Origin: a virus
Taxonomy: Duplodnaviria; Heunggongvirae; Uroviricota; Caudoviricetes
Reading direction: 5' to 3' (one strand)
IMG/VR virus record: IMGVR_UViG_2541047728_000019
Length of the DNA: 39,715 nucleotides
How positions within the stretch are numbered: position 1 is the first letter of the stretch; every line of letters starts with the position of its first letter. Of the stretch, positions 6,610 through 35,944 are shown piece after piece. The notes beneath the pieces were generated by a model, which worked only from the letters and a program-made list of their open reading frames with translations, was not told the origin of the DNA and ran no database searches. A program made the position numbers and the translations under genes.

Positions 6610-6624
6610 TTACCTTTCGGGTAA
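6610..6624. promoter_or_regulatory. Operator-like palindrome TTACC-TTTCG-GGTAA
   Basis: Perfect 5+5 dyad; member of a 12-site family in this window. Confidence 0.55.
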
Positions 6625-6661
6625 TTTGCAAAACGTGCTGGATAGCAAACAAATTATTTGA

Positions 6662-6681
6662 TACTGTATAAATATACAGTT
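6662..6681 (+). promoter_or_regulatory. LexA (SOS) box TACTGTATAAATATACAGTT
   Basis: CTGT-N8-ACAG with AT-rich spacer, matches LexA consensus taCTGT(AT)4ACAGta; centred about 30 bp upstream of ATG 6701. Confidence 0.6.
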
Positions 6682-6700
6682 ATTGCATGGAGAAGATAAG

Positions 6701-6958
6701 ATGCAGCAGTATCACTATCCACTGGAAGACGGATTTACCGAAAGGATTCACACGCCGGGAGGCGTCAGGTCACTGGTGGAGGGATCGCACTTGATGAAAT
6801 TACTCCGGGATCTCGATAAGGATGGATTTAATGTCGATGGCCCACTTGCCGAACTGACTGCACTGATTAACTACGTCACCAGCTCACAGATGTCTATGCA
6901 GGATCTGCAAACACATCTCGACTATTGTGCCGAACAATTACGAAAACAAACCCGGTAA
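6701..6958 (+). CDS. Small antirepressor-like protein: stand-alone copy of the Ant C-terminal module
   Basis: 85 aa; clear similarity (IHTPGGV..LMKLL..DG.NV.G..AELT...Y...DLQTH.DY) to the C-termini of both Ant proteins; GGAG SD 8 nt upstream; LexA box in promoter. Confidence 0.55.
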   Translation: MQQYHYPLEDGFTERIHTPGGVRSLVEGSHLMKLLRDLDKDGFNVDGPLAELTALINYVTSSQMSMQDLQTHLDYCAEQLRKQTR

Positions 6959-6964
6959 ATTTAA

Positions 6965-6982
6965 AGGCCGCAAGAGCGGCCT
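6965..6982. terminator. Bidirectional terminator hairpin aggccgc-aaga-gcggcct
   Basis: 7-bp GC stem between convergent genes; near-identical hairpin at 9612-9629. Confidence 0.5.
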
Positions 6983-7709
6983 ATCGTTTCGCTTTGTGCT
7001 CGTCCCAGCACGTTTTGCACCATGCCATTAAGCCGTCCGCATTTTGATTATTAGGGTAAAAGCTGGTCCGTTTTCTGCGGACATTACAAATTGGGCACCA
7101 CTTCATATGGCGTGTATTCTTTGGGCCATCGAGACACCTTGCACACCACTTAGTCAATCCATCTGGATTTTTTGACGATTTCCGGAATTTGTCATATGGA
7201 AGGTTTATTCTGCATCGCAAACACTGCTTGCGGCCACTTGAAACTCTGTTAGCTGATTCTTCTTTTGGCGGCGATACAGAAGGTATTCTTGCTGGCTCTG
7301 ATACTGCCTGAGGTGCTTTTTTAGATGACTGAGACGATATGTCATCACCAGGGAATCTTCCATGATATGCCGGACGCGTTGACACTCCAGGTGGAAGCTC
7401 AGCTGTAAACGGCTTTGGCTGAATCAGTTGCCTCTCTTTTGCTAACTCCTGCTGTTTATAATATGTCTGGATTACCGCGCTATCATAAGCAGGAGGTACG
7501 GAAATATTAGGCGCATTATCTCCCGTTTTTTGAAACTGAGTGGAGGTGTGTTCTATCACCTGTGTACGATTAATCGTTATCTCCCCATCTTCAGTCTTTA
7601 TCGTTTTGTTATGATTAACGACCGTACGATCAGAGATCTTAGTCTTGTTCTGGTTGATAACGTAAATAATCACCGCAACCACACCAACAACTACCCAGAA
7701 AACTTCCAT
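6981..7709 (-). CDS. Membrane-anchored protein with two tandem CxxC-x22-CxxC zinc-ribbon repeats
   Basis: N-terminal TM helix, Pro/Ser-rich linker, repeats CLRC...DGLTKWCARC and CPIC...DGLMAWCKTC; strong GAGGAAAGG SD; operator palindrome about 20 bp upstream. Confidence 0.6.
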   Translation of the reverse strand: MEVFWVVVGVVAVIIYVINQNKTKISDRTVVNHNKTIKTEDGEITINRTQVIEHTSTQFQKTGDNAPNISVPPAYDSAVIQTYYKQQELAKERQLIQPKPFTAELPPGVSTRPAYHGRFPGDDISSQSSKKAPQAVSEPARIPSVSPPKEESANRVSSGRKQCLRCRINLPYDKFRKSSKNPDGLTKWCARCLDGPKNTRHMKWCPICNVRRKRTSFYPNNQNADGLMAWCKTCWDEHKAKR

Positions 7710-7729
7710 TGCCTTTCCTCACAATAACA

Positions 7730-7744
7730 TTACCTTAAAGGTAA
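7730..7744. promoter_or_regulatory. Operator-like palindrome TTACC-TTAAA-GGTAA
   Basis: Perfect dyad immediately upstream of the 7709 gene. Confidence 0.55.
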
Positions 7745-7822
7745 TATCTTGCTTTCAGGTGATCAAGCGTTAAACGCAATCAACCAAATACGGTTGATTT
7801 TAATATTTCTTCGCGTTTATCA

Positions 7823-7837
7823 TTACCTTTGCGGTAA
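7823..7837. promoter_or_regulatory. Operator-like palindrome TTACC-TTTGC-GGTAA overlapping a candidate -10
   Basis: Preceded by TTGATT-N18-TATCAT; faces the KilA-N antirepressor gene. Confidence 0.55.
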
Positions 7838-8104
7838 ATTTACATCGCACTCCTCTTGTGCCATAGTAATCGGGCACTGGCAAAATCCAGTGCCGGGATT
7901 GGTCTCCCGGATTACTACAGAGGCACATATGCCGCATAAGCGGTTTTTTTATGTGTAAAGCGCACCTATTCTATGGTGGGCTGTGTGGGGGCACCGAAAG
8001 GTGCGCCGGGTTCCTTTGTAGCCGGTAAGACCAACTCTGCACAGTTCACCACCATCTGATTGGTCTCAGCGGTGGTGATTAACCTAACTACAAAGGTGAT
8101 CGCC

Positions 8105-8797
8105 ATGAATACCAAACCTTCCATCTTTTCCTTTGAGTCATCCTGCCAGATCCGTATGTTCATGATTGACGGAGAACCTTGGTTTGTCACCAAAGATGTG
8201 TGCAATGCTTTGAATATTGATGTTACACAAGCGAGAAAACTTGATAAAAAAGGCTGGAACAAAAAGGGGCTGTATTCAATACAGACCCCTGGTGGAATAC
8301 AAGAACTATCCATCGTTTCAGAATCAGGTCTCTACATCCTTATTCTGCGTTGCAAAGAGGCAATGACTGAGGGAACGAGAGCATTCAGATTTCTTGAATG
8401 GGTTACAGGTGAGGTTCTTCCTCAGATCCGCCGCACCGGAAGTTACATTAAAAACTCGCTCCCGCAGGAAGAACGCATAAAGATGGTTGCCGACCAGGTA
8501 GCCAACGCCACAGCATCAGCAGTGATGCAGGCAATGAAGATAGAGAACAAAACCTACAGTGCCCCACTGAAGCCCGGCTACCGCAGCCTGATTCATTCTC
8601 CGTCTGGTGTTCTCGGCCTGACGGAGCACTCACTGCTGATGAATCTGTTGAACCAGTTACAGGAAGACGGGCACGACGTATCGGGCGCGGCGGCGGAGCT
8701 GACCACCATGTTCTGCTACATCGTCGGTGTGAGCAAATGCCTGCGTGATATCCAGACTCACGCGGAGTACATCAACGACAAGGCAGGGTTCTTCTGA
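8105..8797 (+). CDS. Antirepressor, Bro-N/KilA-N N-terminal domain plus shared Ant C-terminal module
   Basis: Bro-N signature (FVTKDVCNAL...SESGLYILILR...FLEWVTGEVLPQIRRTGSY); start MNTKPS at 8105; C-terminal 77 aa near-identical to the other Ant. Confidence 0.8.
   Translation: MNTKPSIFSFESSCQIRMFMIDGEPWFVTKDVCNALNIDVTQARKLDKKGWNKKGLYSIQTPGGIQELSIVSESGLYILILRCKEAMTEGTRAFRFLEWVTGEVLPQIRRTGSYIKNSLPQEERIKMVADQVANATASAVMQAMKIENKTYSAPLKPGYRSLIHSPSGVLGLTEHSLLMNLLNQLQEDGHDVSGAAAELTTMFCYIVGVSKCLRDIQTHAEYINDKAGFF
8564..8797 (+). repeat. Left arm of a 234-bp inverted repeat (about 95 percent identical to 9689-9922)
   Basis: Codon-by-codon comparison by eye: 11 differences, 10 synonymous; encodes the shared Ant C-terminal module. 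Confidence 0.8.
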
Positions 8798-8868
8798 CGG
8801 CGGCGGCACAGGGATGTGCCTTTAAATAATTCTGTACGATTGCAGACCGGGGGGTGAATAGAGTACTA

Positions 8869-8883
8869 TTACCTTACGGGTGA
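8869..8883. promoter_or_regulatory. Operator-like palindrome TTACC-TTACG-GGTGA (one mismatch)
   Basis: Preceded by TTGCAG-N18-TACTAT, upstream of leader ORF and the 9013 gene. Confidence 0.45.
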
Positions 8884-8920
8884 TCCATAGCGATTAGGCA
8901 CCGATACAGGAGGAGCCCAC

Positions 8921-8953
8921 ATGAGAAAATTTGACGAGTACGAAGGCGTTTAA
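8921..8953 (+). other. Candidate 10-codon leader ORF (MRKFDEYEGV)
   Basis: Strong AGGAGG SD upstream; followed 20 nt later by a terminator-like hairpin. Confidence 0.3.
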
Positions 8954-8972
8954 CATTCGGATAGTTTAATGA

Positions 8973-8997
8973 CGGGGCCATTAGGCCCCGTTTTCAT
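8973..8997 (+). terminator. Terminator/attenuator-like hairpin 15 nt upstream of the 9013 start
   Basis: cggggcc-atta-ggccccg stem then TTTTCAT. Confidence 0.45.
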
Positions 8998-9012
8998 GTC
9001 TGGAGACAGTTT

Positions 9013-9552
9013 GTGTTAAGTGAAGAAATGCAATTTGCCATGGCTGTGGCTCAAATCGTAAGTGCAGTCGCGGTTTCGCTTGGCTTGTTCATAGCTATCG
9101 CTACTATTATTTATAATGTAAATACAGCGAGAAAAGTACACACTTCAGTATTCCTTGGTGAAAGCAGGTTTGATGTAGATTATAAGAAAGGCCTATCTAC
9201 TATGCGCCGCATTCACGAGTCGAACAAATCATTCCGCTCTTATATGTATCCAAGCAATGGGCAGGCTGATCTTACGGATGAAGAAAAGATAGAGAAGAGA
9301 GAAATAATTTACTGTCTAGGTTTCTACGAACGCATGGCTGTGAGCGTGAAGCGGAAAACTTATGATGAGACCATGATTAAGGAAGTATTTTACAGCTCCG
9401 TTGTAAATAACTATCAGATTGCGCTACCTCTTATACAAGCTATTAGAGAAAAAGAAAACATAAACACATATTTTAAAGAATATGAATGGTTGGCCACACG
9501 ATGGAAGGATTGTCCATTGAAGGATAAATCCCCGTGGTACAAGTTTTGGTAA
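9013..9552 (+). CDS. Membrane-anchored protein, unknown function (candidate superinfection-exclusion or abortive-infection factor)
   Basis: GTG start with GGAG SD; N-terminal TM helix then about 150-aa soluble domain; AT-rich relative to neighbours. Confidence 0.6.
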   Translation: MLSEEMQFAMAVAQIVSAVAVSLGLFIAIATIIYNVNTARKVHTSVFLGESRFDVDYKKGLSTMRRIHESNKSFRSYMYPSNGQADLTDEEKIEKREIIYCLGFYERMAVSVKRKTYDETMIKEVFYSSVVNNYQIALPLIQAIREKENINTYFKEYEWLATRWKDCPLKDKSPWYKFW

Positions 9553-9574
9553 GCCCGCGCTGCGGGCTTTTTTG
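9552..9574 (+). terminator. Rho-independent terminator after the 9013 gene
   Basis: agcccgc/gcgggct stem then T-run, directly after stop. Confidence 0.6.
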
Positions 9575-9602
9575 TGTCTGCGGATTCCCGCCCGGGTGGC
9601 GG

Positions 9603-9629
9603 TGGCATTCGTTAAAAACAAGGCCGCGA
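9603..9629 (-). terminator. Rho-independent terminator after the AntA-type antirepressor
   Basis: aggccgc-gaaa-gcggcct stem preceded by A-run on plus strand (U-run on minus transcript). Confidence 0.55.
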
Positions 9630-9688
9630 AAGCGGCCTGTGACATGTCACGCTAGTTTCGTTTTGCACGTCCCTGTGCCGCCGTTCTG

Positions 9689-9922
9689 TCAGAAGAACCC
9701 TGCCTTGTCGTTGATGTATTCCGCGTGCGTCTGGATATCACGCAGGCATTTGCTCACACCAACGATGTAGCAGAACATGGTGGTCAGCTCCGCCGCCGCG
9801 CCCGATACATCGTGCCCGTCTTCCTGTAACTGGTTCAGCAGATTCATCAGCAGTGAGTTCTCCGTCAGGCCGAGAACACCCGACGGCGAATGAATCAGAC
9901 TGCGGTAGCCTGGCTTCAATGG
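9689..9922 (-). repeat. Right arm of the 234-bp inverted repeat
   Basis: Reverse complement aligns to 8564-8797 with about 95 percent identity. Confidence 0.8.
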
Positions 9923-10627
9923 ATAACCATAACATTTTGTCTGTGTTTTAATTGCCTCACGAAGCGCATCTAACATCTTGACTGCCACTTCATCATTCTC
10001 TGATGCAGATCCAGCAGGGAGATACTCCCCTTCAAGCGGAACCCGAGCAACAAGAGACAACGCTTCGGCAAATTGATCTTCACCAATTTCTTTGTACGAA
10101 CAGCCAAAATGAGATTTCAGTGACGACCACATGGTGATCATCGCCTTAGCCTGTTTTTCTTTTGGCAGAGACTGACCGCGACTCATGACGAGTTGTTTAA
10201 TGGCTTCCTGCTGTTCAGTTGTTATTTTACCCGGCAACGCCTTTTTAGCTTTGCGTGGGTTAACCACATGGCCTTTAGTCCAGTACTCGTAGAGCACATC
10301 GTCACACTCTTCCTGATACTGGATTACCTTGTCGCGGATTTCAGGGCGGACTTTGTTAGGGCTGATGCTGTTCAACCAAGCTGCCAATTTTCGTAAAGCC
10401 ATACAAATCATGGCTTGCACCCCACCGGCAGAAGGTATGGTGATTTCCACCATACCCTTCGAGAAGCGTTGAGAAATCTTCTTATGTTGAGATTTCCAGT
10501 CTAGCCCCATTCCCTCAACGATAGGTTTCATTGGGGTATACGGTTCGCCGTTGTGATTGACAACATAAAGCTCTGCGCCGTGGAATGGCACGTTGATAGT
10601 AGATACTGCTGTTGCTATACTCGTCAT
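9689..10627 (-). CDS. ant: Antirepressor, AntA-type N-terminal domain plus shared Ant C-terminal module
   Basis: N-terminal PFHGAELYVVNHNGEPYTPMKPIVEGMGLDW resembles AntA; downstream of Arc-like gene as in P22 immI. Confidence 0.8.
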   Translation of the reverse strand: MTSIATAVSTINVPFHGAELYVVNHNGEPYTPMKPIVEGMGLDWKSQHKKISQRFSKGMVEITIPSAGGVQAMICMALRKLAAWLNSISPNKVRPEIRDKVIQYQEECDDVLYEYWTKGHVVNPRKAKKALPGKITTEQQEAIKQLVMSRGQSLPKEKQAKAMITMWSSLKSHFGCSYKEIGEDQFAEALSLVARVPLEGEYLPAGSASENDEVAVKMLDALREAIKTQTKCYGYPLKPGYRSLIHSPSGVLGLTENSLLMNLLNQLQEDGHDVSGAAAELTTMFCYIVGVSKCLRDIQTHAEYINDKAGFF

Positions 10628-10676
10628 GTCGTTAATTCCTATACGTAGTTTTACGATACTGAAGCCCTGACGGTCT

Positions 10677-10690
10677 GGCCACCGTGGGGC
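10677..10690. promoter_or_regulatory. GC-rich dyad GGCCACCGTGGGGC between arc-like and ant
   Basis: Near-palindrome; second copy at 10882-10896. Confidence 0.35.
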
Positions 10691-10699
10691 TTCGCTGTT

Positions 10700-10867
10700 T
10701 TATGCCACGCTATTCTTCTCACCAGTGAGTCCATACACTTTCCTCAGCTGATAGATAATCTCTGTATTGAACTTTCGGCATTCTTTTTCGCCATTTCTTT
10801 CAATAGCTAACTTCACATCGTCCGGAAAACGAACTCGTCGTTGACACATCTCTTTTGCTTTTTGCAT
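10700..10867 (-). CDS. arc: Arc-like ribbon-helix-helix repressor
   Basis: 55 aa; RVRFPDDVKLAIERNGEKECRKFNTEIIYQLRKVYG parallels P22 Arc; AGGAGA SD before ATG 10867. Confidence 0.7.
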   Translation of the reverse strand: MQKAKEMCQRRVRFPDDVKLAIERNGEKECRKFNTEIIYQLRKVYGLTGEKNSVA

Positions 10868-10881
10868 TTCATATCTCCTTA

Positions 10882-10896
10882 GCCCCACCGTGGGGC
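10882..10896. promoter_or_regulatory. GC-rich dyad GCCCCACCGTGGGGC in the arc/mnt divergent control region
   Basis: Near-perfect palindrome overlapping arc 5' region; further dyads (CACCGTG...CACGGTG) nearby. Confidence 0.4.
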
Positions 10897-10987
10897 AAAA
10901 TAATTGTCACACCGTGCGTCATTGATGTCAAGCACACGGTGAGGCATACTTCAATCATTGCAAGTAACTCAATATTTGGTGAAGAAC

Positions 10988-11419
10988 ATGAGCAGAGAAG
11001 ATCCACAACTAAGGATCAGACTTCCCGTCGAAGTAAAAGAAAAAATAGAAATTTCTGCAAAAGCCAATAAGCGATCAATGAACGCTGAAATAGTACAACG
11101 TCTTGACACCAGCTTTCTGAAAGATATTCATGAAGATGACGTAATTTCTGCTTATGAAGCAAAAATCATTGCAAACAATGCACGACATGAAATATCAAAT
11201 ATTATTTTCAAAAGAACCTTTAATGAAATTAATAAGAAAATAACACTTGGACATACAAGTTTTTATATAAACCTTAATGACCTTGAACTGGAATCACTTG
11301 CAGATAATGATTACCAGATCATCTTTGAAAAAACATTTAATAAGCTCAATGAACTAGGTTACATCATCTGTGAAAACTCATGGGATGCAGATGGTTTTGG
11401 AATTGAAATACCTGAATAG
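10988..11419 (+). CDS. mnt: Mnt-like ribbon-helix-helix repressor with about 95-aa C-terminal extension
   Basis: MSREDPQLRIRLPVEVKEKIEISAKANKRSMNAEIVQRL closely parallels the P22 Mnt N-terminus; divergent from arc-ant; very AT-rich. Confidence 0.7.
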   Translation: MSREDPQLRIRLPVEVKEKIEISAKANKRSMNAEIVQRLDTSFLKDIHEDDVISAYEAKIIANNARHEISNIIFKRTFNEINKKITLGHTSFYINLNDLELESLADNDYQIIFEKTFNKLNELGYIICENSWDADGFGIEIPE

Positions 11420-11482
11420 GAAGAACAAAAGGCGTGTACATATTACACGTCTTTAATACAATTGAAAAACGCCACATTACTG

Positions 11483-12073: not shown

Positions 12074-12084
12074 AGGTGTTTAAC

Positions 12085-18855: not shown

Positions 18856-21326
18856 CAGAATCCCCCAACAGTAAGGCGAGGAATAACGGCAAGAACAGAC
18901 AGCGGCAACGGGTCAAGCTGACGGATTTTTACACGTCCGTTTTTGCCCCAGTTACTGTCCAGTTTCACTTCTACTTTTCCGGTAGCATCATCAACAGGAT
19001 CATCGTAGAACTCGAATTCACGCTGTGGATATTCGTACCATTTACCGCCAGGCGTAGTCGCCCAGATGCCGCGGCTGGCATTCACAACCAGAGTAACGGA
19101 GGGGATCACCTGTTTTTTGTCCAGCAGCGTTTCCTGTCCGTTAATGTTGATATCCAGTGTTTCGAATTCAGCAGTTATTGGCAGGCCGATGTGCACTACA
19201 GCCCCCGGAGATTCCAGTGTGACGGCACCTCCGGAAACAACTTTCTGTGGCTCAACATTCGCATCAGAAAGAATGTTTACGGTCTGTCCTTCAAGATGAG
19301 ACAGGCCTCCAAATGTCCGGCGCGCCATCTGCCAGTTCGTGGTGGCCGTATTCCTGAGGGATGGCGGGACGTTCCTGTTGGCACGAACCACTACAGCGGT
19401 ATTGCTGGTTACAGAAATAATGTCGCAACGTAATTCTTTTGACACTTCATCGCCAGTATCAGGATCAGTTCCGGTATAAGGGAACTGTAGTTGCGCACCG
19501 ACATCACTACTGGTGAAGTACGCACCACCAGAAACACTGATTGTATATTCCGCGCGGTAATCCCATTCGCCAGAACCACCAGTGATTGTCATCGTTCTGT
19601 CAGACGTATTTCTTCCATCATAGCTAAGGCCAGAATCAACAAAGAAAGCATCTTCATCGCTGGTAAATAAACGGCTGGACAGTCGCTCGATGTATCTCAC
19701 TGTTTGCCCGTTAACGGTTCGGTTAATGACGAAATACACCGCATCTTCATTGCCTTCGCTGATACTGCATGTGCTTTCATATTTTCCGGTACTGGACTGT
19801 GGTGCCCATGCAAAAACCTGTTGATCACGCAAATAGGTCATCACCAGTAATTTACCGTCATCACGAATGCAGAAGGCGCTGGAGTAAGGGACAATAGAGA
19901 AGCACCAGTCAACAATGCTGTGCTTCTGAAAAAGATGATTGGCAAGGATAGTAAGGTCGTTCCCCTGATAGCCGTCAACATCGAATGAGTAGGCCAGATC
20001 ACGGACAACACTGCCTTTCTCCTGGACGAACAGAGCAATATTCGCCACGGCAATTGGTGGGACATTGCTCGAGCCATTTGATCCCTGAGAGCTGAATGCA
20101 AATGATGATGGGGTTAACACTTTGTTCTGGTCGCCGGTGATGACGTACTCACCTCCGGAAGTCAGTGCCACCAGCGAACCGACATCAATCAGGTGGCGGA
20201 TCTCATTAACCTGACGCCCGGCATAGGTGTAGATAATTCTGTCGTCATCCTGCGTAGGATTGCTTTTGCCAAAATCCTTATAATCCCCGGTACGGCTGGC
20301 CCAGATAGTCTGAGGGAACGCAGTCGATGCGGCGAAGTAAAGACGTTGTTGATAATAAACAACAGTGCCAGGATAACCATTAACACTGTTCCAGGCATAT
20401 TTAGCCCATTTATAGCTGGCATTATCCTCGCCAACTACCTGCGAAGGGATATAGGAAATCACCTCGGCAGTTGCAGTAGTTCCATTTGCAGCAGTGATAC
20501 GGGCAATGCCAAAACCACTGTGCAGATATTCCCACTCAATGCCAGTATCATCATCACCGGATCCGCCCCAGCCATCCCATGATGTGCCTTCTGTATGCGA
20601 AGGGCGCAAAGTACCTGTTTTGCCTGCTGTAACGGCGCGATAGTAGTTACTGTCTGCACGGCGAATATCGCCAATCGACGTACTCTTACTGGTTTCCCAT
20701 ACCGGCACTGAATCCACTGCAGGCTGTTCCAGATAGAACAATTTGCCTACCTGCTCCGCGCCAAAAATAGAGGCGCTTGCCGTTAACGTAATTGTCCCGG
20801 TGCTGGCGCTGGCATAAACCGTCACTGACTCGTCAATATTGATATCTTCAAATGGCCCGTTCTTCGTTACCACATCAACCAGTTGCCAGTTGTCATGCGC
20901 ATAGCGACGCAACTCTTTCGGCGGGTATGCCGGATGAACCAGCGTAAGCACGTCGGCGCTTTGCGTGAATTTAATTCGGAACAGATCGGCTTCAGTATAT
21001 GGCGTGGCAATTTCATAAATAACATTGCTGCTGTTCAGCACCAACGCACCATCTTTGATAACGCGCATGTACTGGTGTCCGAACTCCAGAGCATAAGTCT
21101 GAACCGTCGAGAACTGGAACGGGATCAGGCGGCATTTCCGATTTGGGTATTTGGCGGCACCGACAAAACGCGTACCAGGTCGATTCTCAACGCCGCCATA
21201 CTGCCGCACGATAAAGTTATCGCACTTGCGCAATGCCACCTGGTACTTCGCCATGTCGATACGACCGTACAACGACGGTCCAATCTCACCACCGGCAAAG
21301 CTGGGCTGGATCCAACTGATAGCCAT
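18855..21326 (-). CDS. Tail tubular protein B-like (nozzle)
   Basis: 823 aa immediately after tubular-A-like gene, as in T7. Confidence 0.7.
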   Translation of the reverse strand: MAISWIQPSFAGGEIGPSLYGRIDMAKYQVALRKCDNFIVRQYGGVENRPGTRFVGAAKYPNRKCRLIPFQFSTVQTYALEFGHQYMRVIKDGALVLNSSNVIYEIATPYTEADLFRIKFTQSADVLTLVHPAYPPKELRRYAHDNWQLVDVVTKNGPFEDINIDESVTVYASASTGTITLTASASIFGAEQVGKLFYLEQPAVDSVPVWETSKSTSIGDIRRADSNYYRAVTAGKTGTLRPSHTEGTSWDGWGGSGDDDTGIEWEYLHSGFGIARITAANGTTATAEVISYIPSQVVGEDNASYKWAKYAWNSVNGYPGTVVYYQQRLYFAASTAFPQTIWASRTGDYKDFGKSNPTQDDDRIIYTYAGRQVNEIRHLIDVGSLVALTSGGEYVITGDQNKVLTPSSFAFSSQGSNGSSNVPPIAVANIALFVQEKGSVVRDLAYSFDVDGYQGNDLTILANHLFQKHSIVDWCFSIVPYSSAFCIRDDGKLLVMTYLRDQQVFAWAPQSSTGKYESTCSISEGNEDAVYFVINRTVNGQTVRYIERLSSRLFTSDEDAFFVDSGLSYDGRNTSDRTMTITGGSGEWDYRAEYTISVSGGAYFTSSDVGAQLQFPYTGTDPDTGDEVSKELRCDIISVTSNTAVVVRANRNVPPSLRNTATTNWQMARRTFGGLSHLEGQTVNILSDANVEPQKVVSGGAVTLESPGAVVHIGLPITAEFETLDININGQETLLDKKQVIPSVTLVVNASRGIWATTPGGKWYEYPQREFEFYDDPVDDATGKVEVKLDSNWGKNGRVKIRQLDPLPLSVLAVIPRLTVGGF

Positions 21327-26753: not shown

Positions 26754-26764
26754 AACCACATATG
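26754..26764 (-). promoter_or_regulatory. Recurrent motif CATATGTGGTT (minus strand) upstream of the portal-proximal unit
   Basis: Lies between palindrome 26806-26820 and the start at 26715. Confidence 0.3.
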
Positions 26765-26805: not shown

Positions 26806-26820
26806 TTACCTTTCAGGTAA
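26806..26820. promoter_or_regulatory. Operator-like palindrome TTACC-TTTCA-GGTAA
   Basis: Perfect dyad; TTGACA hexamer at 26784-26789. Confidence 0.55.
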
Positions 26821-27142
26821 CCAAAGAGTTCATTCCGGTTACTAACCTGACTGGCTTGTCGTTAAATTGAACAGGTGGAGTGAGCTTTTATTTTGAGCAG
26901 TACGGCGTATGGCACATGCGCCGATAGCGGTCTGGATGCGTTTAAGGGGCACCCTCCCTGGCTGTGGCAAACGAACCAGGTAGCCGGAATGTGCAAGTCG
27001 AGCGGTTTTATTCCGCGCACGGGGATTCACCATCCCGGCGATTCGGTGTGACGCCTCGGAAGAGACGAGGGTACAACGATGAGAGCATTTATGGAGCCGC
27101 GACAAAGTGTGGCGCCTTAACAGGCTAAGTGCTCTCAGCGTT

Positions 27143-27219
27143 GTGGCATTAGCTCAGTTGGACAGAGCAACCGCCTTCTAAGCGGTTGGTCGCAGGTTCG
27201 AATCCTGCATGCCACGCCA
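27143..27219 (+). tRNA. tRNA-Arg (anticodon UCU, reads AGA)
   Basis: Cloverleaf folded by hand: acceptor GTGGCAT/ATGCCAC, D-arm GCTC..GAGC, anticodon stem ACCGC/GCGGT with loop CTTCTAA, T-arm GCAGG-TTCGAATC-CCTGC, 3' CCA encoded. Confidence 0.85.
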
Positions 27220-27262
27220 GAATCACGCCTAAGGACCGTGATGCCAGAAGTTCCAGGTGCTT

Positions 27263-27305
27263 GGCGGTGATGGTTTCCCTTGAAGGACTATCACCGCCCT
27301 TTTTA
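27263..27305 (+). terminator. Rho-independent terminator downstream of the tRNA
   Basis: ggcggtgat...atcaccgcc stem then CTTTTT. Confidence 0.6.
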
Positions 27306-27382
27306 CAGCAGGACGCCATTGCGATGACTTCATGCTGTAAACCAGTACAGCCACGGAAGGCATAACTCATTGCTTCCAGTTC

Positions 27383-27405
27383 GCCCGGTTCGCCGGGCAT
27401 TTTTT
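27383..27405 (+). terminator. Second hairpin plus T-run just upstream of the Gp49-like gene
   Basis: gcccgg-ttcg-ccgggc then 7 T, followed by RBS. Confidence 0.5.
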
Positions 27406-27417
27406 TAAGGTGAGATT

Positions 27418-27840: not shown

Positions 27841-27882
27841 TCCTCATCAGAGGATATCAACAACATTATCCCCTCAAGCGGA

Positions 27883-29358: not shown

Positions 29359-29960
29359 TGATTGCCATCCTGACGTTCTTTCAGTCTCTTCCTGGCTGCC
29401 GCTATGCGATCAGCAATTGTCACATTCACATTAACATCCAGGCGTTCTTTGAATGCATTGACATCGACGTGCTTACCAATCAGTTCGAGGTTCTTCACCT
29501 TGTCAGGCCATTTAATTTTTTTGAGGATTGTCTCTATCGAATCCTCGTCCATGTTCATGATGGTCGATGACAGATCAAAGCCGCTAAGCGTAGTGCGCCA
29601 GATTTTCGGCCACTCGCGGATTGGCTTAAGGCTCCCATCGTCGTTGAGGATATCAATCACGTCCATCTGGTCGATCTCCACCAGGCGCATGAGAACGTAA
29701 TCAGCACTGACGCGCATTCGTTTGTTGCGCTCCTCCATCAACTCGGCAATCCGTTTCTGAATGCGTTCATCGCGCATCATGACACTGGCTTTAACTGCCG
29801 CTGTATTTGGGGAGAATCCTGCATTAATCGCAGCCTGAGTCTGATTTTCAGGCGTTTTGATGTATGACTGGCAATAAGCCTCCTGCATTGCTGTTAGTGG
29901 CTTAAATTGCGTTGATTTGCGTTTATAGGTTTTAGGTTCAGCAGGCATCATAACCACCAT
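29355..29960 (-). CDS. Terminase small subunit (putative)
   Basis: Directly upstream of terL with overlapping stop/start; start uncertain (ATG 29960/29951/29948 or TTG 30029). Confidence 0.7.
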   Translation of the reverse strand: MVVMMPAEPKTYKRKSTQFKPLTAMQEAYCQSYIKTPENQTQAAINAGFSPNTAAVKASVMMRDERIQKRIAELMEERNKRMRVSADYVLMRLVEIDQMDVIDILNDDGSLKPIREWPKIWRTTLSGFDLSSTIMNMDEDSIETILKKIKWPDKVKNLELIGKHVDVNAFKERLDVNVNVTIADRIAAARKRLKERQDGNQ

Positions 29961-30025
29961 GGTAATAGTTACCGTTGTGGTAATAGTACCATGCAAAATA
30001 AAGCCGCCATAGTTGGCGGCAGTAT

Positions 30026-30868: not shown

Positions 30869-31148
30869 GACCTTCCTCCTTTGGCTTGTGAATTTGTATC
30901 GTCATGCCGCTTTGAGTGGTGACTACAACGACAGAACCAGGCTGAAGACTGTTAAGATTGAATGCTTCGTAAAACGAAGCCAAGGCCAGCGCTTTTTTAT
31001 TCTTTCGGTTCCACCAACGCCATCCATTGCTACAGGCTACACTGACAATCCACTGTCCACTCCTGTAAGCCATATAAAACCAGATGAGCAAAACCTGAAT
31101 GAATGCTATCCAGTCAATAATCGTATATTTCGCGAAGGAGACCATCAA
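30861..31148 (-). CDS. Hypothetical small membrane protein
   Basis: 95 aa with hydrophobic N-terminal segment. Confidence 0.45.
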   Translation of the reverse strand: MMVSFAKYTIIDWIAFIQVLLIWFYMAYRSGQWIVSVACSNGWRWWNRKNKKALALASFYEAFNLNSLQPGSVVVVTTQSGMTIQIHKPKEEGRG

Positions 31149-31861
31149 TTAACCTCCTGCGGCGGTTCCGGTAGAGGCATCCAGTACAAGGCGTTCCCTA
31201 ACCACGATAAAGTGCCGTCGCTCAACTCCACGTATTCCCCTTGTACCTGTCCTGCCATATACTCGCCGTGCTTTGAATAAATTAAAATCCAATCATCTTG
31301 AGCGGGCATTCGCTCACTACAGCTTATCCAACCATCCGGAGTTACCGGATAGTTGCCAGCCTGAACAGTAGGCATATCAGGACCTTTGCGAATCGCCCTG
31401 GCAAGATCGATTGGGTCGTCGTACAACCAGTCACCTGTTTGCGGATGATTGGCTTCTGCCAATTGTGCAGCCCACTCCAGGCCGTCTTTGTGTCCTTGCA
31501 GATAGTCCAGCGGTAACTCATCACTATTACTTACAGGTTCGGCTTCCAGTTCTGCAATGCGCTTCTCTGCAGCTTCCAGCTCAACACGCAGCTTCCCTAC
31601 CGTTAGCGCAATATCCTCGTTCTCCTGGTCGCGGCGTTTGATGTATTGCTGGTTTCTTTCCCGTTCATCCAGCAGTGCCAGCACGGTTTCTGGTCCGGTC
31701 AGAAATTTGAAGGCGTTGAGCGCATCAATATCCACACCGTAATCTTTAAGTTCCTGTTCACTTAACAAATCATCATCAACTGGCAACATTAACAGGCGAT
31801 CCATTGCCGGAATTGCACGCTCTGCCTCCTCACGCAGTGCCTGATAGTCAATCTTGCTCAC
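31145..31861 (-). CDS. Ead/Ea22-like protein with DUF551-like C-terminal domain
   Basis: Acidic coiled-coil N-half; C-terminal WISCSERMP...WILIY..HGEY pattern. Confidence 0.55.
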   Translation of the reverse strand: MSKIDYQALREEAERAIPAMDRLLMLPVDDDLLSEQELKDYGVDIDALNAFKFLTGPETVLALLDERERNQQYIKRRDQENEDIALTVGKLRVELEAAEKRIAELEAEPVSNSDELPLDYLQGHKDGLEWAAQLAEANHPQTGDWLYDDPIDLARAIRKGPDMPTVQAGNYPVTPDGWISCSERMPAQDDWILIYSKHGEYMAGQVQGEYVELSDGTLSWLGNALYWMPLPEPPQEVN

Positions 31862-32394
31862 TGGTTGCCTCCTTTGCGAAGCTGGGCAGCAAAGTCAACT
31901 AACCACTCAGTCATTTCAACCTTCCCTACCAGGTCTGAACCAGGGTGCATACAGCAATCACTCTGCGCCGCTTTGAAATCCTTATACTCATATTCTTGGG
32001 CCACCAGATTTTTTGCAGCTTCTATAGCAGCATCCACCCCCTGCGCCCGTACTTCAGCCAGGAATGCGTCGGTGGCTGGGGTGTCTGATTGCAGAGACTT
32101 TGCGCGATAGTCATTCCACCCTCTTGCATACATGGGATTAACTTGCACTCCATCTTTTACGCAATATGCCTGACCTCCACGGTTGATAACCTTGATTTCG
32201 CCCATAGCGCCAGACTTCAGCCCCGCATTCTCCACAGCCAGCGCATTAGCACGCACCAGTTGCACTTCCAGTTGCGTTGCCAAATCGCTGAGCAGCTTTG
32301 CCACACTGCGCATATCAACGGCACCACATTCTGCTTTCAGTTCCGAAGCCATCTCATGCCCGTCGGCAACTAACCCTTTGATATTACTTTCCAT
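31858..32394 (-). CDS. Hypothetical protein
   Basis: 178 aa in nin-like block. Confidence 0.5.
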   Translation of the reverse strand: MESNIKGLVADGHEMASELKAECGAVDMRSVAKLLSDLATQLEVQLVRANALAVENAGLKSGAMGEIKVINRGGQAYCVKDGVQVNPMYARGWNDYRAKSLQSDTPATDAFLAEVRAQGVDAAIEAAKNLVAQEYEYKDFKAAQSDCCMHPGSDLVGKVEMTEWLVDFAAQLRKGGNQ

Positions 32395-32455
32395 CTTTAC
32401 CCTCGCTTATCCACATAACTTATTGATTACATTGATAACTAAAAAGATCGTCGAT

Positions 32456-32803
32456 TCAGAACTCTTCGATGTTCCAGCCACCACCTGCTTTCTTTGGTTT
32501 AACCGTTACCCCGATGATTCGGAACGGATACTGATCTGCGGCGACTTTGGTTTTCACCCTGGCGTCGTCGGTCCAGAATCCCCCTTTCACTTCGTGCAGC
32601 TCCATCTCGCCGGTGGCGAGCATCACAGCAAAATCGGGCGTATAGAACGTGTTGTCAGCTAACCGCAGCTTGATACCCTCAAATCGATACCAGACGATTT
32701 CTCCTGCACGTTTACGCATCTCAAGGTGCTGGCAATACGCAGATTCTGTTTTGTTCATCTGGCCTGTTTTGAGTCGACCAAGAGCCTGTATCTGTTTTCT
32801 CAT
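32456..32803 (-). CDS. Small PD-(D/E)XK nuclease-like protein (possible junction-resolvase-like)
   Basis: YTPDF ... ELHEVKGG motif pair. Confidence 0.5.
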   Translation of the reverse strand: MRKQIQALGRLKTGQMNKTESAYCQHLEMRKRAGEIVWYRFEGIKLRLADNTFYTPDFAVMLATGEMELHEVKGGFWTDDARVKTKVAADQYPFRIIGVTVKPKKAGGGWNIEEF

Positions 32804-32806
32804 GAT

Positions 32807-32821
32807 TTACCTCTGAGGTAA
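32807..32821. promoter_or_regulatory. Operator-like palindrome TTACC-TCTGA-GGTAA next to the 32803 start codon
   Basis: Perfect dyad. Confidence 0.55.
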
Positions 32822-32826
32822 TTAAA

Positions 32827-32837
32827 AACCACATAAG
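32827..32837 (-). promoter_or_regulatory. Recurrent motif (minus strand CTTATGTGGTT) between two palindromes
   Basis: Third copy of the YATATGTGGTT family. Confidence 0.3.
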
Positions 32838-32868
32838 ACACGAAATCAATAGAGTTTAGAATATTTTG

Positions 32869-32883
32869 TTACCCAACAGGTAA
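32869..32883. promoter_or_regulatory. Operator-like palindrome TTACC-CAACA-GGTAA
   Basis: Perfect dyad downstream of the replication-operon terminator. Confidence 0.55.
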
Positions 32884-32892
32884 CTATCAAGA

Positions 32893-32915
32893 CATAAAAA
32901 AATGCGCTATCGCGC
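32893..32915 (-). terminator. Weak rho-independent terminator after the replication genes
   Basis: Short gcgc-gata-gcgc stem plus 7-nt U-run on the minus transcript. Confidence 0.4.
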
Positions 32916-32920
32916 TGGTA

Positions 32921-33697
32921 TTACTTGATAAATCCTGCCGCCTTTCCCCGCCTGTATTCCTCCATCAGCCACTGCGCCGGTGTTATTCCCCCAAGGGTGG
33001 CGGCGTTAGGCATGCACCCGAAACTTCGCCCTGGTGGATGGTAAACGTCTCTCCCTGTGTCCGGAGGCGTACTCATGGGTTCTGGCTTTGCCTGTATGCT
33101 GATCACCGGATCCGGTATCTGCTGTCCGGAAGCCACCTTTTTCGCCCAATCATCGAGCAGCCTGCGCGCGTGTTTCTCAACCTCAATCTCGCTAAGCTGG
33201 CGCTGATACATTGCACGGCGGGTATCACATACGACCCAGTACATAACCGGATGTCGCCACGGGAATCTTTCGGGACCACCAGGATATAAACTTTTTTCCT
33301 TGCTGTACCGGTGAAACTCCGCCATCACATCGTCAATGGTGACGCCAAGAACCATCTTGCTGTCTTTACACCACTTGATGAATTGCCCTGGCGACGGCCA
33401 GAACGGAGACTCACTGGCGCGGGCGTGGCGCATACCAGCGTTAACCTGTTCCATTGTAGTGATCCCATTCTCCAGAAACGCAAGCATCCATTGCTTACGG
33501 AATTCATTAAGTTTGTTCTGCTCCCTTATGGTCGAAACGCTTGCGGGAAATGCAGCCTGTAACTGGACAAATAGTTCATTGAAAATTCTAGCGACCTGCT
33601 CCTTTTTGCCATTGCTGTCACGCCGCTCTTCATGCACAGCAACACCATGCTCACGTAAGCGATCGTACTCATTGAGAAGTTCTGGAGTTGATTTCAT
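32921..33697 (-). CDS. Putative replication protein
   Basis: 258 aa downstream of DnaT-like gene in early-right operon; function by position only. Confidence 0.5.
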   Translation of the reverse strand: MKSTPELLNEYDRLREHGVAVHEERRDSNGKKEQVARIFNELFVQLQAAFPASVSTIREQNKLNEFRKQWMLAFLENGITTMEQVNAGMRHARASESPFWPSPGQFIKWCKDSKMVLGVTIDDVMAEFHRYSKEKSLYPGGPERFPWRHPVMYWVVCDTRRAMYQRQLSEIEVEKHARRLLDDWAKKVASGQQIPDPVISIQAKPEPMSTPPDTGRDVYHPPGRSFGCMPNAATLGGITPAQWLMEEYRRGKAAGFIK

Positions 33698-34499
33698 CCC
33701 ACACCCCTTCTATCCAGTCAGTGTTATTCCAGTCAAGCTCATCGCTTTTCCCGGCGTTTTTTGATTTTCCCCTGATATGATTTACGTGCCTGGCGAATTT
33801 TTGTTCCCACTGAACCTGCGTGAACACTTTGCCCTCAGCCATCCAGTAATCCCGGAATGCAGCAAGTTCAGCAGGTGTAAATTCCGGTTCCGGCAGGGCC
33901 GTTCCCCACAGCGCAGCACGCCGTCGAAAATCCGGCGACGGATGCCAGCCATCGGTCATCGGAAATTTCCCGATGGGTTCACTCAGGCCATCCAGAAATT
34001 CAGGTTCAGCCACCTGCAACGGCATACCGTTCGCTTCACTGGTCGGAGCACCCTCGCGCACGTGCGCTATGTGTGGGGTTTTATATATATCTTCCTCTTC
34101 CTCTTCCTCTGGTAACTCCTTTTGTAACGCTGTTGGCGTTACTTTTTGCGTTACTCGTTTTCGATGCTCTGCCACTCTTCTATTCGTAAGTGCACGTTTT
34201 TTCGATGATTCTCCATTGTGTCGCTCAAAGTTTGGAAGAATTAGTTTGCCGTCATGATAAGCAAGCCATCCGACGCTAATGAGGGCGTCAGCAAATCCTG
34301 TAATAAAAGCGAGTCTATCAAGTACTCCTTTTGTAACGCTGCCAGCGTTACCGTCTATTGTTTGCTGGTCAGCCCATGCCCATATACGAACCAGCTTTCC
34401 AAGAACAGCATCTGGATCAATACCCAGAATTTCTGCTATCTGAAAAATTTCAGGTTTATCAGGAGTGATAACTTCAACCTTAATCCAGCTGCTTGCCAT
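33669..34499 (-). CDS. Replication/primosome-like protein (DnaT-like C-terminal region, tentative)
   Basis: Acidic EEEEEED linker; C-terminal W/F/P-rich segment; start MASSW at 34499. Confidence 0.5.
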   Translation of the reverse strand: MASSWIKVEVITPDKPEIFQIAEILGIDPDAVLGKLVRIWAWADQQTIDGNAGSVTKGVLDRLAFITGFADALISVGWLAYHDGKLILPNFERHNGESSKKRALTNRRVAEHRKRVTQKVTPTALQKELPEEEEEEDIYKTPHIAHVREGAPTSEANGMPLQVAEPEFLDGLSEPIGKFPMTDGWHPSPDFRRRAALWGTALPEPEFTPAELAAFRDYWMAEGKVFTQVQWEQKFARHVNHIRGKSKNAGKSDELDWNNTDWIEGVWDEINSRTSQ

Positions 34500-34674
34500 A
34501 GGTTTCCCCTCTTGCACTCTTTAGTGCACAAGCAAATTCATTACGATGGCGGTTGGCGCTATTCATTGCACATTCAACACATGTTCCGTTCAGAACATAC
34601 CTTTCAGAGAGATGGCCGTGACGGCACCGCTTTCCTGTGAAATAGCGATTTAACCCGGCTTTTGCGGCCTCCAT
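34480..34674 (-). CDS. Small zinc-ribbon protein
   Basis: CRHGH ... CVEC pattern; start ambiguous (ATG 34674 or TTG 34692). Confidence 0.45.
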   Translation of the reverse strand: MEAAKAGLNRYFTGKRCRHGHLSERYVLNGTCVECAMNSANRHRNEFACALKSARGETYGKQLD

Positions 34675-34840
34675 TCTGGTTACTATCTTCAATTTTTCCG
34701 CCCCTTTTTGTTATTGATATTGGCTATTTTGCACAATTGGAAAATTTGATCAACCAGATTTGGTTTTTTATTACCTTTGAGGTACGAATAGATATGAAAA
34801 GACCGCCGGGTGGCGGTCTACAGAGGGTTGTAGCTGGATA

Positions 34841-35071
34841 TCATGAGTAGAAGAAGTATGCCAGTTCTGCTTTTGAGCGCAGCCATTGTCTTGTTTTACA
34901 GGCTTTAAAAAGCCCATTCATCAATACTTTACCTGGCATTTTGCGCTTACCTGTTAAGTGAGTCTGGATATAGTGACTCGTCGTTCCGGCTTCCTGTGCG
35001 AAGGCTTCACGCTCATCCGGAGTAAGTGCAAGCCAGTGCTTTTTGAAATCGAAATGTCCGTTATCGCTCAT
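34841..35071 (-). CDS. Cro-like HTH regulator (first gene of leftward early operon)
   Basis: 76 aa with HTH segment; divergent from repressor-like gene across a three-operator region. Confidence 0.6.
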   Translation of the reverse strand: MSDNGHFDFKKHWLALTPDEREAFAQEAGTTSHYIQTHLTGKRKMPGKVLMNGLFKACKTRQWLRSKAELAYFFYS

Positions 35072-35106
35072 AGCTATTGCCTGATATTTATTTCAGATAA
35101 TAAATA

Positions 35107-35121
35107 TTCACCCATAAGGTA
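35107..35121. promoter_or_regulatory. Operator-like site TCACC-CATAA-GGTAA (one mismatch)
   Basis: First of three sites in the cro/repressor intergenic region. Confidence 0.45.
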
Positions 35122-35137
35122 ACAAAAATCAAGGATA

Positions 35138-35152
35138 GTTACCTGTGTGGTG
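35138..35152. promoter_or_regulatory. Operator-like site TTACC-TGTGT-GGTGC (degenerate right half)
   Basis: Adjacent to 35155-35169 site. Confidence 0.4.
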
Positions 35153-35154
35153 CA

Positions 35155-35169
35155 TTTACCTGTTGGGTA
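35155..35169. promoter_or_regulatory. Operator-like palindrome TTACC-TGTTG-GGTAA
   Basis: Perfect dyad; third site of OR-like cluster. Confidence 0.55.
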
Positions 35170-35225
35170 ATATTGCTTTAAATTGAATCATCTACTGATT
35201 CATATATGAGGCGATTTTCCAGAAA

Positions 35226-35810
35226 ATGAAAAGTATCCAGGACGTCCGCAGGCAAAATCTCAACGACTTGATCGACCGTGAATTCAATGGTGTTCAGACG
35301 CGGATGGCTGAAAAACTTGGAACTCAGGCAAATCTGGTAAACCGCTGGGCTCTTGGCAAGAAGGTTATCGGCGACCAGGTTGCACGAAAAATTGAAGCTG
35401 CCGCCAATAAACCCCGTAACTGGCTTGATATCGATCGCTCGCTTTCTCAGGAAGGTTTTCAGCCTGTCGGCCCAAGCGACATTGGCCAGCTGGCGGCTCA
35501 CAACCTGGAACGCTGGATGAGCGAAAGCCGCGACCTTTCAACACAGGGAAAACTTCACCGCGCATCCGGCGTAGCCCAGGTGACAATCAGCCGCCTATTA
35601 AACAATGAGGTCAGCGTTTCCATTTCCACCCTGGAGAATGTTGCATCCGCATTCGGGCGTCACGGCTATGAATTACTGATTCACCCGCACGACCCTGCGA
35701 CCATCAACTATGATCGCTCGCGCTACGCATTGTTACCCGAAACCGAGAAAGCAAAGATCGAAAGTTACATTGAATTTGTCATCAACCAGAACGAAAAAAA
35801 CAAACAATAA
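35226..35810 (+). CDS. Repressor-like DNA-binding protein with two HTH-like segments and no S24 peptidase domain
   Basis: 194 aa; HTH-like QTRMAEKLGTQANLVNRWALGKK and a second in the C-half; no Ser/Lys autocleavage motifs seen. Confidence 0.6.
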   Translation: MKSIQDVRRQNLNDLIDREFNGVQTRMAEKLGTQANLVNRWALGKKVIGDQVARKIEAAANKPRNWLDIDRSLSQEGFQPVGPSDIGQLAAHNLERWMSESRDLSTQGKLHRASGVAQVTISRLLNNEVSVSISTLENVASAFGRHGYELLIHPHDPATINYDRSRYALLPETEKAKIESYIEFVINQNEKNKQ

Positions 35811-35831
35811 AACCATATTTTTCAGTAAGTA

Positions 35832-35855
35832 AGCCGCCTTATGGCGGCTTTTTTA
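35832..35855 (+). terminator. Rho-independent terminator after repressor-like gene
   Basis: agccgcc-ttat-ggcggct then T-run. Confidence 0.65.
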
Positions 35856-35867
35856 TTGCCTATTCGA

Positions 35868-35882
35868 TTACCTGATGGGTAA
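35868..35882. promoter_or_regulatory. Operator-like palindrome TTACC-TGATG-GGTAA upstream of early promoter
   Basis: Perfect dyad. Confidence 0.55.
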
Positions 35883-35901
35883 TTTTTTTAACTCATATCT
35901 A

Positions 35902-35930
35902 TTGACATCAAACCATATACGCATAATTAT
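35902..35930 (+). promoter_or_regulatory. Candidate sigma70 promoter TTGACA-N17-AATTAT for the rightward early operon
   Basis: Consensus -35, 17-bp spacer, A/T-rich -10, flanked by two operator palindromes. Confidence 0.5.
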
Positions 35931-35944
35931 TACCTCAACGGTAA
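35930..35944. promoter_or_regulatory. Operator-like palindrome TTACC-TCAAC-GGTAA at predicted +1
   Basis: Perfect dyad abutting the -10. Confidence 0.55.

Follow-up and report, generated by a model that had tools for sequence, protein, structure and literature searches.

The DNA analysed here (39,715 nucleotides, IMG/VR record IMGVR_UViG_2541047728_000019, referred to in its full length as the window) is an integrated prophage of the ε15/phiV10/ZX5-like genus Uetakevirus, and its intergenic DNA carries repeated copies of a 15-bp palindrome, TTACC-N5-GGTAA, hereafter the dyad. The immunity and replication region is 97–98% identical to that of phages HEMP4, ZX5, TL-2011b and phiV10. The published attP core is found as its reverse complement, aatcattcccactcaat, at 1163–1179 with non-phage genes to its left, and the window stops short of int.

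The regulators of the prophage are listed in Table 1. The repressor (Rep) is a full-length homologue of SPC32H Rep (5d50_A, E=4e-42, residues 1–190) and is 100% identical to the phiV10 and ZX5 repressors. Pfam assigned HTH_3/HTH_26 to Rep, and Peptidase_S24 was found neither in Rep by Pfam nor in the precomputed Pfam domains of 86 homologues. The divergently encoded Cro-like protein is 58–84% identical across lineages and contains an invariant AGTTSHYIQTHLT segment. Ant, the small antirepressor, shares 85–88% identity with its ε15 and SPC32H counterparts, and the LexA box over its promoter is kept in all lineages.

Census and shape of the dyad

Ten exact copies of the dyad were found in the window, starting at 6610, 7730, 7823, 26806, 29969, 32807, 32869, 35156, 35868 and 35930, against an expectation of 0.02 from dinucleotide-preserving shuffles; this number was reached in 0/100 shuffles. 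Allowing up to one mismatch gave 15 copies (0.65 expected), the additional ones starting at 6378, 8869, 29951, 34771 and 35108. These 15, together with a two-mismatch copy at 35139 that lies between 35108 and 35156 in the right-operator (OR) region, make up the 16-copy set used below. The original prediction had listed 12 sites and proposed the count against shuffled sequence, which bore it out. All 12 sites exist, with 35107, 35138 and 35155 displaced by one position (correctly 35108, 35139 and 35156), and the three described as degenerate are indeed 8869 and 35108 (one mismatch each) and 35139 (two). Missing from that list were 29969 and 29951, just upstream of terS, and 34771, just past the cro terminator.

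Coding and non-coding DNA were separated with a gene map built from open reading frames (ORFs), family searches and synteny. Non-coding DNA makes up 8.0% of the window yet wholly contains 15 of the 16 copies (binomial P≈5e-16). Of 13 intergenic gaps that are 70 nt or longer, nine contain the dyad. The expectation that every site would be non-coding thus held with one exception, and the equal frequency in coding DNA that would have spoken against the prediction was not seen. The sole coding copy, at 6378 in the tailspike gene, carries one mismatch, and no counterpart of it was among the sites with up to one mismatch in the tailspike genes of the other scanned phages; as about 0.65 such copies are expected, it is probably a chance occurrence.

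Pooling 73 distinct sites from seven genomes gave the consensus aTTACC-nnWnn-GGTAAt, with invariant arms, a variable spacer and an A/T centre. This shape argues for the binding site of a dimeric DNA-binding protein. Deviations in one arm were compensated in the other in 0/18 cases among the pooled sites, and for this reason the dyad was taken as a protein site rather than an RNA hairpin or cruciform; no Rfam family was found over the dyad, and the hairpin and cruciform readings were rejected. The 5-nt spacer has an A/T content of 82–94% in the Salmonella and Klebsiella lineages, compared with 63–69% for E. coli/Enterobacter; this lineage dependence could be an indirect-readout signal.

Table 1. 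Regulators, dyad-bearing promoters and neighbouring features, in window coordinates
Feature	Coordinates	Strand	Description
Rep, prophage repressor	35226–35810	+	194 amino acids (aa); N-terminal helix-turn-helix (HTH) and C-terminal HTH-like tetramerisation/Ant-binding domain
Cro-like HTH regulator	34841–35071	-	76 aa; divergent from rep; matches phrog_35 'transcriptional repressor'
Ant, small antirepressor	6701–6958	+	85 aa; matches 5d50_E 'Anti-repressor protein', E=5e-47
LexA box, perfect	6664–6679	+	CTGTATAAATATACAG; covers −10/+1 of ant promoter, 22 nt before ant ATG
OR cluster, three dyads	35108–35122, 35139–35153, 35156–35170		TCACC..GGTAA, TTACC..GGTGC and exact; 31 and 17 bp centre to centre
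PL module	35868–35944	+	dyad 35868–35882, 19 nt, −35 TTGACA 35902–35907, 17 nt, −10 AATTAT 35925–35930, dyad 35930–35944
nin promoter (Pnin) module	32807–32883	-	dyad 32869–32883, 19 nt, −35 TTGATT 32849–32844, 17 nt, −10 TTTAAT 32826–32821, dyad 32821–32807
Post-cro dyad	34771–34785	-	one mismatch, GTACC..GGTAA on minus strand; directly past cro terminator (34819–34800)
terS dyad pair	29951–29983	-	29969–29983 exact, 29951–29965 TTACC..GGTTA; centres 18 bp apart
Portal-operon dyad	26806–26820	-	single; start of gp3/portal structural operon
Tailspike/ant dyad	6610–6624		divergent region
242-aa gene dyad	7730–7744		21 nt upstream of start codon 7709 (gene 6981–7709, minus)
Promoter and dyad upstream of isrK	7794–7837	+	TTGATT-N18-TATCAT; last T starts dyad 7823–7837
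Cassette behind dyad 7823	7874–8797	+	isrK RNA 7874–7950, C4 antisense RNA 7969–8056, Bro-N antirepressor gene 8060–8797
DUF4760 promoter and dyad	8840–8883	+	TTGCAG-N18-TACTAT; last T starts dyad 8869–8883 (TTACC..GGTGA); gene 9013–9552
P22 immI-like module	9689–11419		antirepressor 9689–10627 (-), Rfam sar antisense RNA 10629–10696 (+), probable arc 10700–10888 (-), Arc/Mnt-like gene 10958–11419 (+)
CAWATNYGGTT copies	3140–3150, 6543–6553, 6570–6580, 7785–7795, 26754–26764, 34752–34762	-, +, -, +, -, -	second intergenic motif
tRNA-Arg	27143–27219	+	anticodon TCT; between terL and portal operon; overlaps mechanical ORF 27149–27400 (minus)
Prophage/host junction	1–1179		glycine-zipper/TraT-like lipoprotein gene 1–516, DUF5384 gene 532–1071

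Placement of the dyad at promoters

Promoter geometry was read directly from the sequence, and nine copies occupied one of two positions. In position A, the dyad shares its first T with the final T of a −10 hexamer and overlaps the −10 and the start site. Five copies are placed in this way (PL 35930, Pnin 32821→32807, isrK-upstream 7823, DUF4760 8869 and terS 29983→29969). In four of them a −35-like hexamer stands 17–18 nt from the −10; terS has an extended −10 instead. In position B, 17–19 nt separate the end of the dyad from the −35 that follows it, and the dyad centre falls near −62, as found for four copies (PL 35868, Pnin 32869, post-cro 34771 and, at the ant promoter Pant, 6610). At Pant the LexA box takes position A, where PL and Pnin carry their downstream dyad.

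Both positions are used at PL and Pnin, so that each promoter is bracketed by dyads whose centres lie 62 bp apart. The bracket is kept at both promoters in all six genomes compared; 11 of the 12 spacings are 62 bp and the other is 63 bp (for PL alone, 62 bp in five genomes and 63 bp in one). The original prediction had recognised the TTGACA-N17-AATTAT early promoter at PL and the two dyads flanking it; this module adjoins the rep terminator (35831–35850). Pnin has the same architecture as PL, the DUF1064 gene (ATG 32803) has its Shine-Dalgarno sequence (GAGG) inside the downstream dyad of Pnin, and the module is kept in six genomes though the first gene behind it varies (DUF1064 or RuvC-like). 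At the downstream-dyad/Shine-Dalgarno site TTACCTNAGAGGTAAatcATG is retained across this change of the next gene, which suggests that the promoter–operator cassette with TTACCTNAGAGGTAAatcATG is a mosaic junction.

In the immunity region, the three dyads predicted to form an OR-like cluster do lie between the divergent cro-like and repressor genes. Dyad 35108 falls in the spacer and −35 of a predicted minus-strand cro promoter (TTGTTA-N17-TATTAT), and the three-site layout is also present in phiV10, Tyrion, BUCT711, ε15 and SPC32H. The post-cro dyad precedes by 17 nt a conserved promoter directed toward the replication genes, TTGATC-N16-CAAAAT (34753–34726).

Late operons carry the dyad as well. 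The terS pair sits between a terminator and the terS ATG (29948), with an extended −10 (TGgTACTAT) abutting the first dyad and the second dyad overlapping or containing the terS ribosome-binding site. The arrangement recurs in phiV10, ZX5, Tyrion and ε15, where the copy at 12–27 is annotated as a repressor site, and the 17–18 bp between adjacent dyads is common to terS and OR. The portal-operon dyad is followed after about 45 nt by a conserved box, ATATGTGGTT-N5-GGTAAT (26763–26743), and its ε15 orthologue (2931–2947) is likewise annotated as a repressor site, as is that of dyad 6610 (19895–19911). On its ant side dyad 6610 lies 18 nt upstream of the −35 TAGCAA (6643–6648), and on its tailspike side it fills the spacer of TTGCAA-N17-ATCTAT.

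The remaining sites stand at acquired modules. The product of the 242-aa gene has an N-terminal transmembrane (TM) segment and a Zn-ribbon; its dyad, 7730, is 93 bp from 7823, which ends 1 nt before the −35 (TTTACA, 7839–7844) of isrK's own promoter. The ant/tailspike, isrK–C4–Bro-N antirepressor, DUF4760, portal and nin units each begin with a dyad, in agreement with the placements originally proposed, and a TM-like N-terminal segment was found in each of the two genes described there as coding for membrane proteins. Dyads were also said to precede the antirepressor genes; this applies to two of the units, the third gene (9689–10627) having none.

Before the lysis cassette (window 3080–3385), no dyad was found at up to two mismatches in either the window or ZX5, while a copy (TCACC/TTACC…GGTAA) is present there in ε15, SPC32H, phiV10 and Tyrion. 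The window and ZX5 also lack divergent O-antigen modification genes at this position.

Antirepressor genes with a module like SPC32H Ant (phrog_450) number three in the window: it stands alone in 6701–6958 (+), behind Bro-N in 8060–8797 (+) and behind P22_AR_N in 9689–10627 (-). The two fused proteins have almost the same C-terminal domain, which shares 38–40% identity with the small Ant. Within the immI-like module that contains the third gene (9689–11419) there is no TTACC dyad, and this module thus appears to be under its own control.

A second intergenic motif, CAWATNYGGTT, with the near-palindromic core CCAWATNYGG, occurs six times against 0.41 expected, is always oriented toward the downstream gene, and is enriched also in ε15 and BUCT711. 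A longer form of it, ATATGTGGTT-N5-GGTAAT, is seen at the tailspike and portal operons. This motif may be the site of a second regulator (e.g., a late activator) or an extended −35 element. At the prophage/host junction, guaA was not found beside the att core (1163–1179), unlike the 3' end of guaA reported as the integration site of ZX5 and phiV10. SPC32H annotates a tRNA-Arg at the place equivalent to that of the window.

Conservation of the dyad and its probable reader

Prior annotation was available for ε15, whose RefSeq record (NC_004775.2) contains seven protein_bind features labelled 'repressor / lysogeny'. All seven contain TTACC-N5-GGTAA, and the ε15 genome has 15 copies at up to one mismatch against 0.6 expected. 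Orthologues of the annotated sites in the window are 29969, 26806, 6610, 35868/35930 and 32869. The 2007 ε15 genome paper reportedly described a 17-bp ATTACC…GGTAAT motif; searches of the accessible literature text by sequence string and keyword did not turn up a description of the operator. Because the same dyads at the same positions are marked as repressor sites in the ε15 record, the core finding was already known, and the novelty implied by the original prediction does not stand: the sites are a known feature of the genus. Three aspects may be new: that the 62-bp bracket is conserved, that imported modules have received the dyad, and that the operator stays the same throughout the genus although Rep diverges quickly.

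Dyads at orthologous positions were found in ε15, SPC32H, phiV10, ZX5, Tyrion and BUCT711. Three further prophages, one of them from Serratia, encode a Rep 54–59% identical and also carry the dyad, and in these TTACC is the only recurrent arm of any 5-N5-5 palindrome (6–7 copies vs 1). Positional conservation thus extends over ten genomes and five host genera, with Rep identity down to 42%, and the TTACC half-site is common to phages of Escherichia, Salmonella, Klebsiella, Enterobacter and Serratia. Nine classes of site are distinguished in the genus: paired copies just before terS; the start of the gp3/portal operon; the ant/tailspike divergent region; a site upstream of the lysis cassette (not in the window or ZX5); an imperfect site upstream of int (outside the window); the PL pair; the OR triplet; a site just after the cro terminator; and the nin pair. 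The imperfect copy, TTACC-N5-GGTAT, lies about 43 nt upstream of int in eight relatives (at 26870, 26882, 8026, 26960, 28568, 12620, 15724 and 16783), nested in the inverted repeat GACGGTA…TACCGTC. In the ε15 record, integrase and RNase III sites are marked there, so the copy could serve as an operator or as an RNA element.

The isrK–C4–antirepressor cassette allowed the dyad to be followed on a mobile module. In the window, isrK and C4 scored 74.7 and 78.6 bits with Rfam, and the antirepressor (8060–8797) consists of Pfam Bro-N and an Ant-like C-terminal domain (phrog_450, residues 162–243). The cassette is common to more than 200 lambdoid, Stx, Gifsy and APSE phages. Matches outside Uetakevirus begin at isrK and exclude the dyad, whereas Uetakevirus matches include it. 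Within ±400 nt of the cassette, no dyad was found in Gifsy-1, Stx2 II, APSE-1 or IdasGreatGrand, in which a plain TTGAC-N17-TATATT promoter is present. As the dyad accompanies the cassette only in phages that encode Rep, it would be gained when the module joins a Rep genome, and its absence from the isrK–C4 cassettes of Rep-less phages ties it to the phage's own regulators rather than to a host factor.

Taken together, the dyad is very likely the operator of this prophage's Rep, and through it Rep would directly gate nearly every transcription unit; the Cro-like protein is probably a second reader, by analogy with lambdoid switches. The proposal that one phage repressor acts at many promoters is thus supported by the positional conservation in ten genomes, the repressor annotation in ε15 and the lack of the dyad in Rep-less cassettes. 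Almost every transcription unit is insulated by terminators and has its own dyad-bearing promoter, and no single OL/OR pair feeds a cascade. The units concerned are PR/PRM (three sites), PL, post-cro/replication, nin, terS, the portal operon, tailspike/ant, the isrK–C4–Bro-N antirepressor, the 242-aa gene and DUF4760.

The dyad would be read by the N-terminal HTH domains of this SPC32H-type Rep. SPC32H Rep was described as a tetramer on palindromic DNA sites, with DNA-binding dimers formed across the tetramer (PMC9638917), and its tetramerisation domain has a 'TetDloop' fold associated with DNA looping (PMC9986798). A Rep tetramer, with two DNA-binding dimer units, might fill two adjacent dyads (17–18 bp, at OR and terS); alternatively, one tetramer might span both dyads of the 62-bp bracket and clamp the promoter between them. 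Upon SOS induction, cleavage of LexA at the box over Pant would release expression of the small Ant, and Ant would take Rep apart, derepressing all units together. The second antirepressor cassette would be among these and provide positive feedback. Overexpression of the ZX5 repressor, which is identical to Rep, lowered endolysin and holin transcripts by more than 99.9% (PMC9782041).

Several points weigh against Rep as the direct reader of all these sites. The ZX5 overexpression experiment does not separate direct repression from cascade effects. In the late promoters of portal and tailspike, about 65–80 nt lie between the dyad and the presumed start downstream of it, which is not where an occluding operator classically sits. 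Comparison of the E. coli and Salmonella lineages gives an identity of 43% for Rep (N-terminal domain 53%, C-terminal domain 40%), as against 76% for the Cro-like protein and 85–88% for Ant, and the dyad half-sites are identical; since Rep has diverged so much more than the dyad, the Cro-like protein could be what constrains it.

On this last ground, the dyad might primarily be a genome-wide lytic-phase site of the Cro-like protein (34841–35071), with Rep acting only at OR and PL or through another contact. The better conservation of the Cro-like protein and its invariant HTH segment parallel the invariant dyad, but the ε15 record assigns the sites to the repressor, SPC32H Rep was reported on palindromic sites, and the recognition helix of Rep is itself invariant or nearly so (NLVNRW, invariant across five lineages in the alignment), and we consider this arrangement unlikely. 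In lambdoid phages, the sharing of operators by CI-type and Cro-type proteins is the norm, and by that analogy binding of the Cro-like protein most likely adds to the role of Rep and does not replace it. Co-variation between protein and DNA did not help: the helix variants NLINRW, NLVSRW and NLISRW are all encoded at loci with the TTACC half-site, a scan of viral contigs for co-variation gave only loci with identical Rep, and because the half-site never changes the comparison is uninformative on who reads the dyad.

A role of the dispersed copies chiefly as Rep-dependent roadblocks or insulators ('stoperators') against read-through, rather than in the control of initiation, would fit terS 29951/29969, Pnin 32807 and post-cro 34771, which follow terminators or precede or cover ribosome-binding sites. 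It is rendered quite improbable by the five copies at the last T of a −10 and the four at 17–19 nt before a −35, a lineage-conserved geometry that points to initiation control, and by the symmetry of the sites, which are not scattered inside operons as L5 stoperators are. A host transcription factor site or an RNA/DNA hairpin (a processing or terminator element) has the least to commend it and is highly improbable: although a 5-bp stem closing a 5-nt loop can be drawn from the dyad and the imperfect copy upstream of int in other phages lies in a larger inverted repeat with an ε15-annotated RNase III site, arm deviations are uncompensated, the motif functions with genes in either orientation, the dyad goes with the phage immunity module in all five host genera, and the same isrK–C4 cassette lacks it in Rep-less E. 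coli and Salmonella phages. A host-factor site was rejected as unlikely on the grounds that the dyad follows the phage immunity module and is missing from isrK–C4 of other enterobacterial phages.

With Rep as the reader of the dyad, a further combination of ideas can be put forward only tentatively, and we regard it as doubtful: that a single Rep tetramer bridges dyads exactly 62 bp apart as a micro-loop clamp around the −35 and −10, that DNA specificity is frozen throughout the genus, and that immunity specificity lies outside operator recognition. Specificity would be frozen because a dozen or more dispersed operators would need to change jointly. Immunity specificity in the genus would then rest on, for example, Rep oligomerisation, Ant pairing or spacer-dependent indirect readout; in lambdoid phages it resides in operator recognition.

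If Rep gates these units as proposed, silencing of the prophage depends on repressing almost all of its operons directly, newly acquired cassettes included, and not on a short cascade. The conceptual gain is small, as the ε15 record already marks the sites, and the extensions are modest. The operator set could be used to annotate the many phiV10/ZX5-like E. coli prophages whose records carry no operator features, to predict accessory genes that are silent in lysogens, and to engineer phiV10-based reporter phages.

Relation to known repressor systems

The window shares with lambda and P22 a three-site OR between divergent repressor and cro genes and operators that overlap promoter elements. It differs in having at least nine operator-bearing regions rather than the two of an OL–OR pair, in a Rep without the S24 domain, and in dyad spacing, with promoters bracketed at 62 bp where lambda has tandem 23–24-bp arrays. 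With dyads in nine intergenic regions and no S24 domain in Rep, this is not a lambda CI-type switch.

Many repressor sites beyond the immunity region are also known from mycobacteriophage L5 (the gp71 'stoperators') and from φC31 (conserved inverted repeats). L5 sites are asymmetric and orientation-dependent, lie within transcription units and block elongation; the window sites lack these features, being palindromic, intergenic in 15 of 16 cases and fixed relative to the −10 and −35. Phage P1 comes closer, with a C1 repressor and dispersed operators that include Op51 before the immI c4–icd–ant operon. Like the window, P1 has one primary repressor, many scattered operators and control of the promoter of a C4-RNA/antirepressor operon. 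The P1 operators, however, are asymmetric 17-mers and C1 is an unrelated protein, while the window dyad is symmetric (15–17 bp) and Rep is of HTH_3 type; late genes of P1 are controlled indirectly via Lpa, while the window has sites at the starts of late operons as well. The window system works like a P1 C1-type regulon but is not a member of that class, a conclusion drawn without a search for C1 homologues.

The Rep–Ant switch of SPC32H was reportedly described by Kim & Ryu (2013) and Kim et al. (2016; PDB 5D50/5D4Z). Homologous Rep and Ant, a LexA box over the ant promoter and a Rep without the S24 autocleavage domain are shared with it; the window Rep is only 42% identical, and the window has two more antirepressor genes with an Ant-like C-terminal domain. 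ε15 (NC_004775.2) belongs to the same genus and has the same dyad at the same positions (terS, portal operon, ant/tailspike, PL and nin region), although its record marks seven copies and leaves out the OR cluster, the second nin dyad and the second terS dyad. Compared with ε15, the window carries additional dyads at modules it has acquired (isrK–C4–Bro-N antirepressor, 242-aa gene and DUF4760) and is without the lysis-cassette copy. Homology of Rep, a small Ant with a LexA box in its promoter and dyads at the ε15 sites place the window element within the ε15/SPC32H Rep–Ant–operator system.

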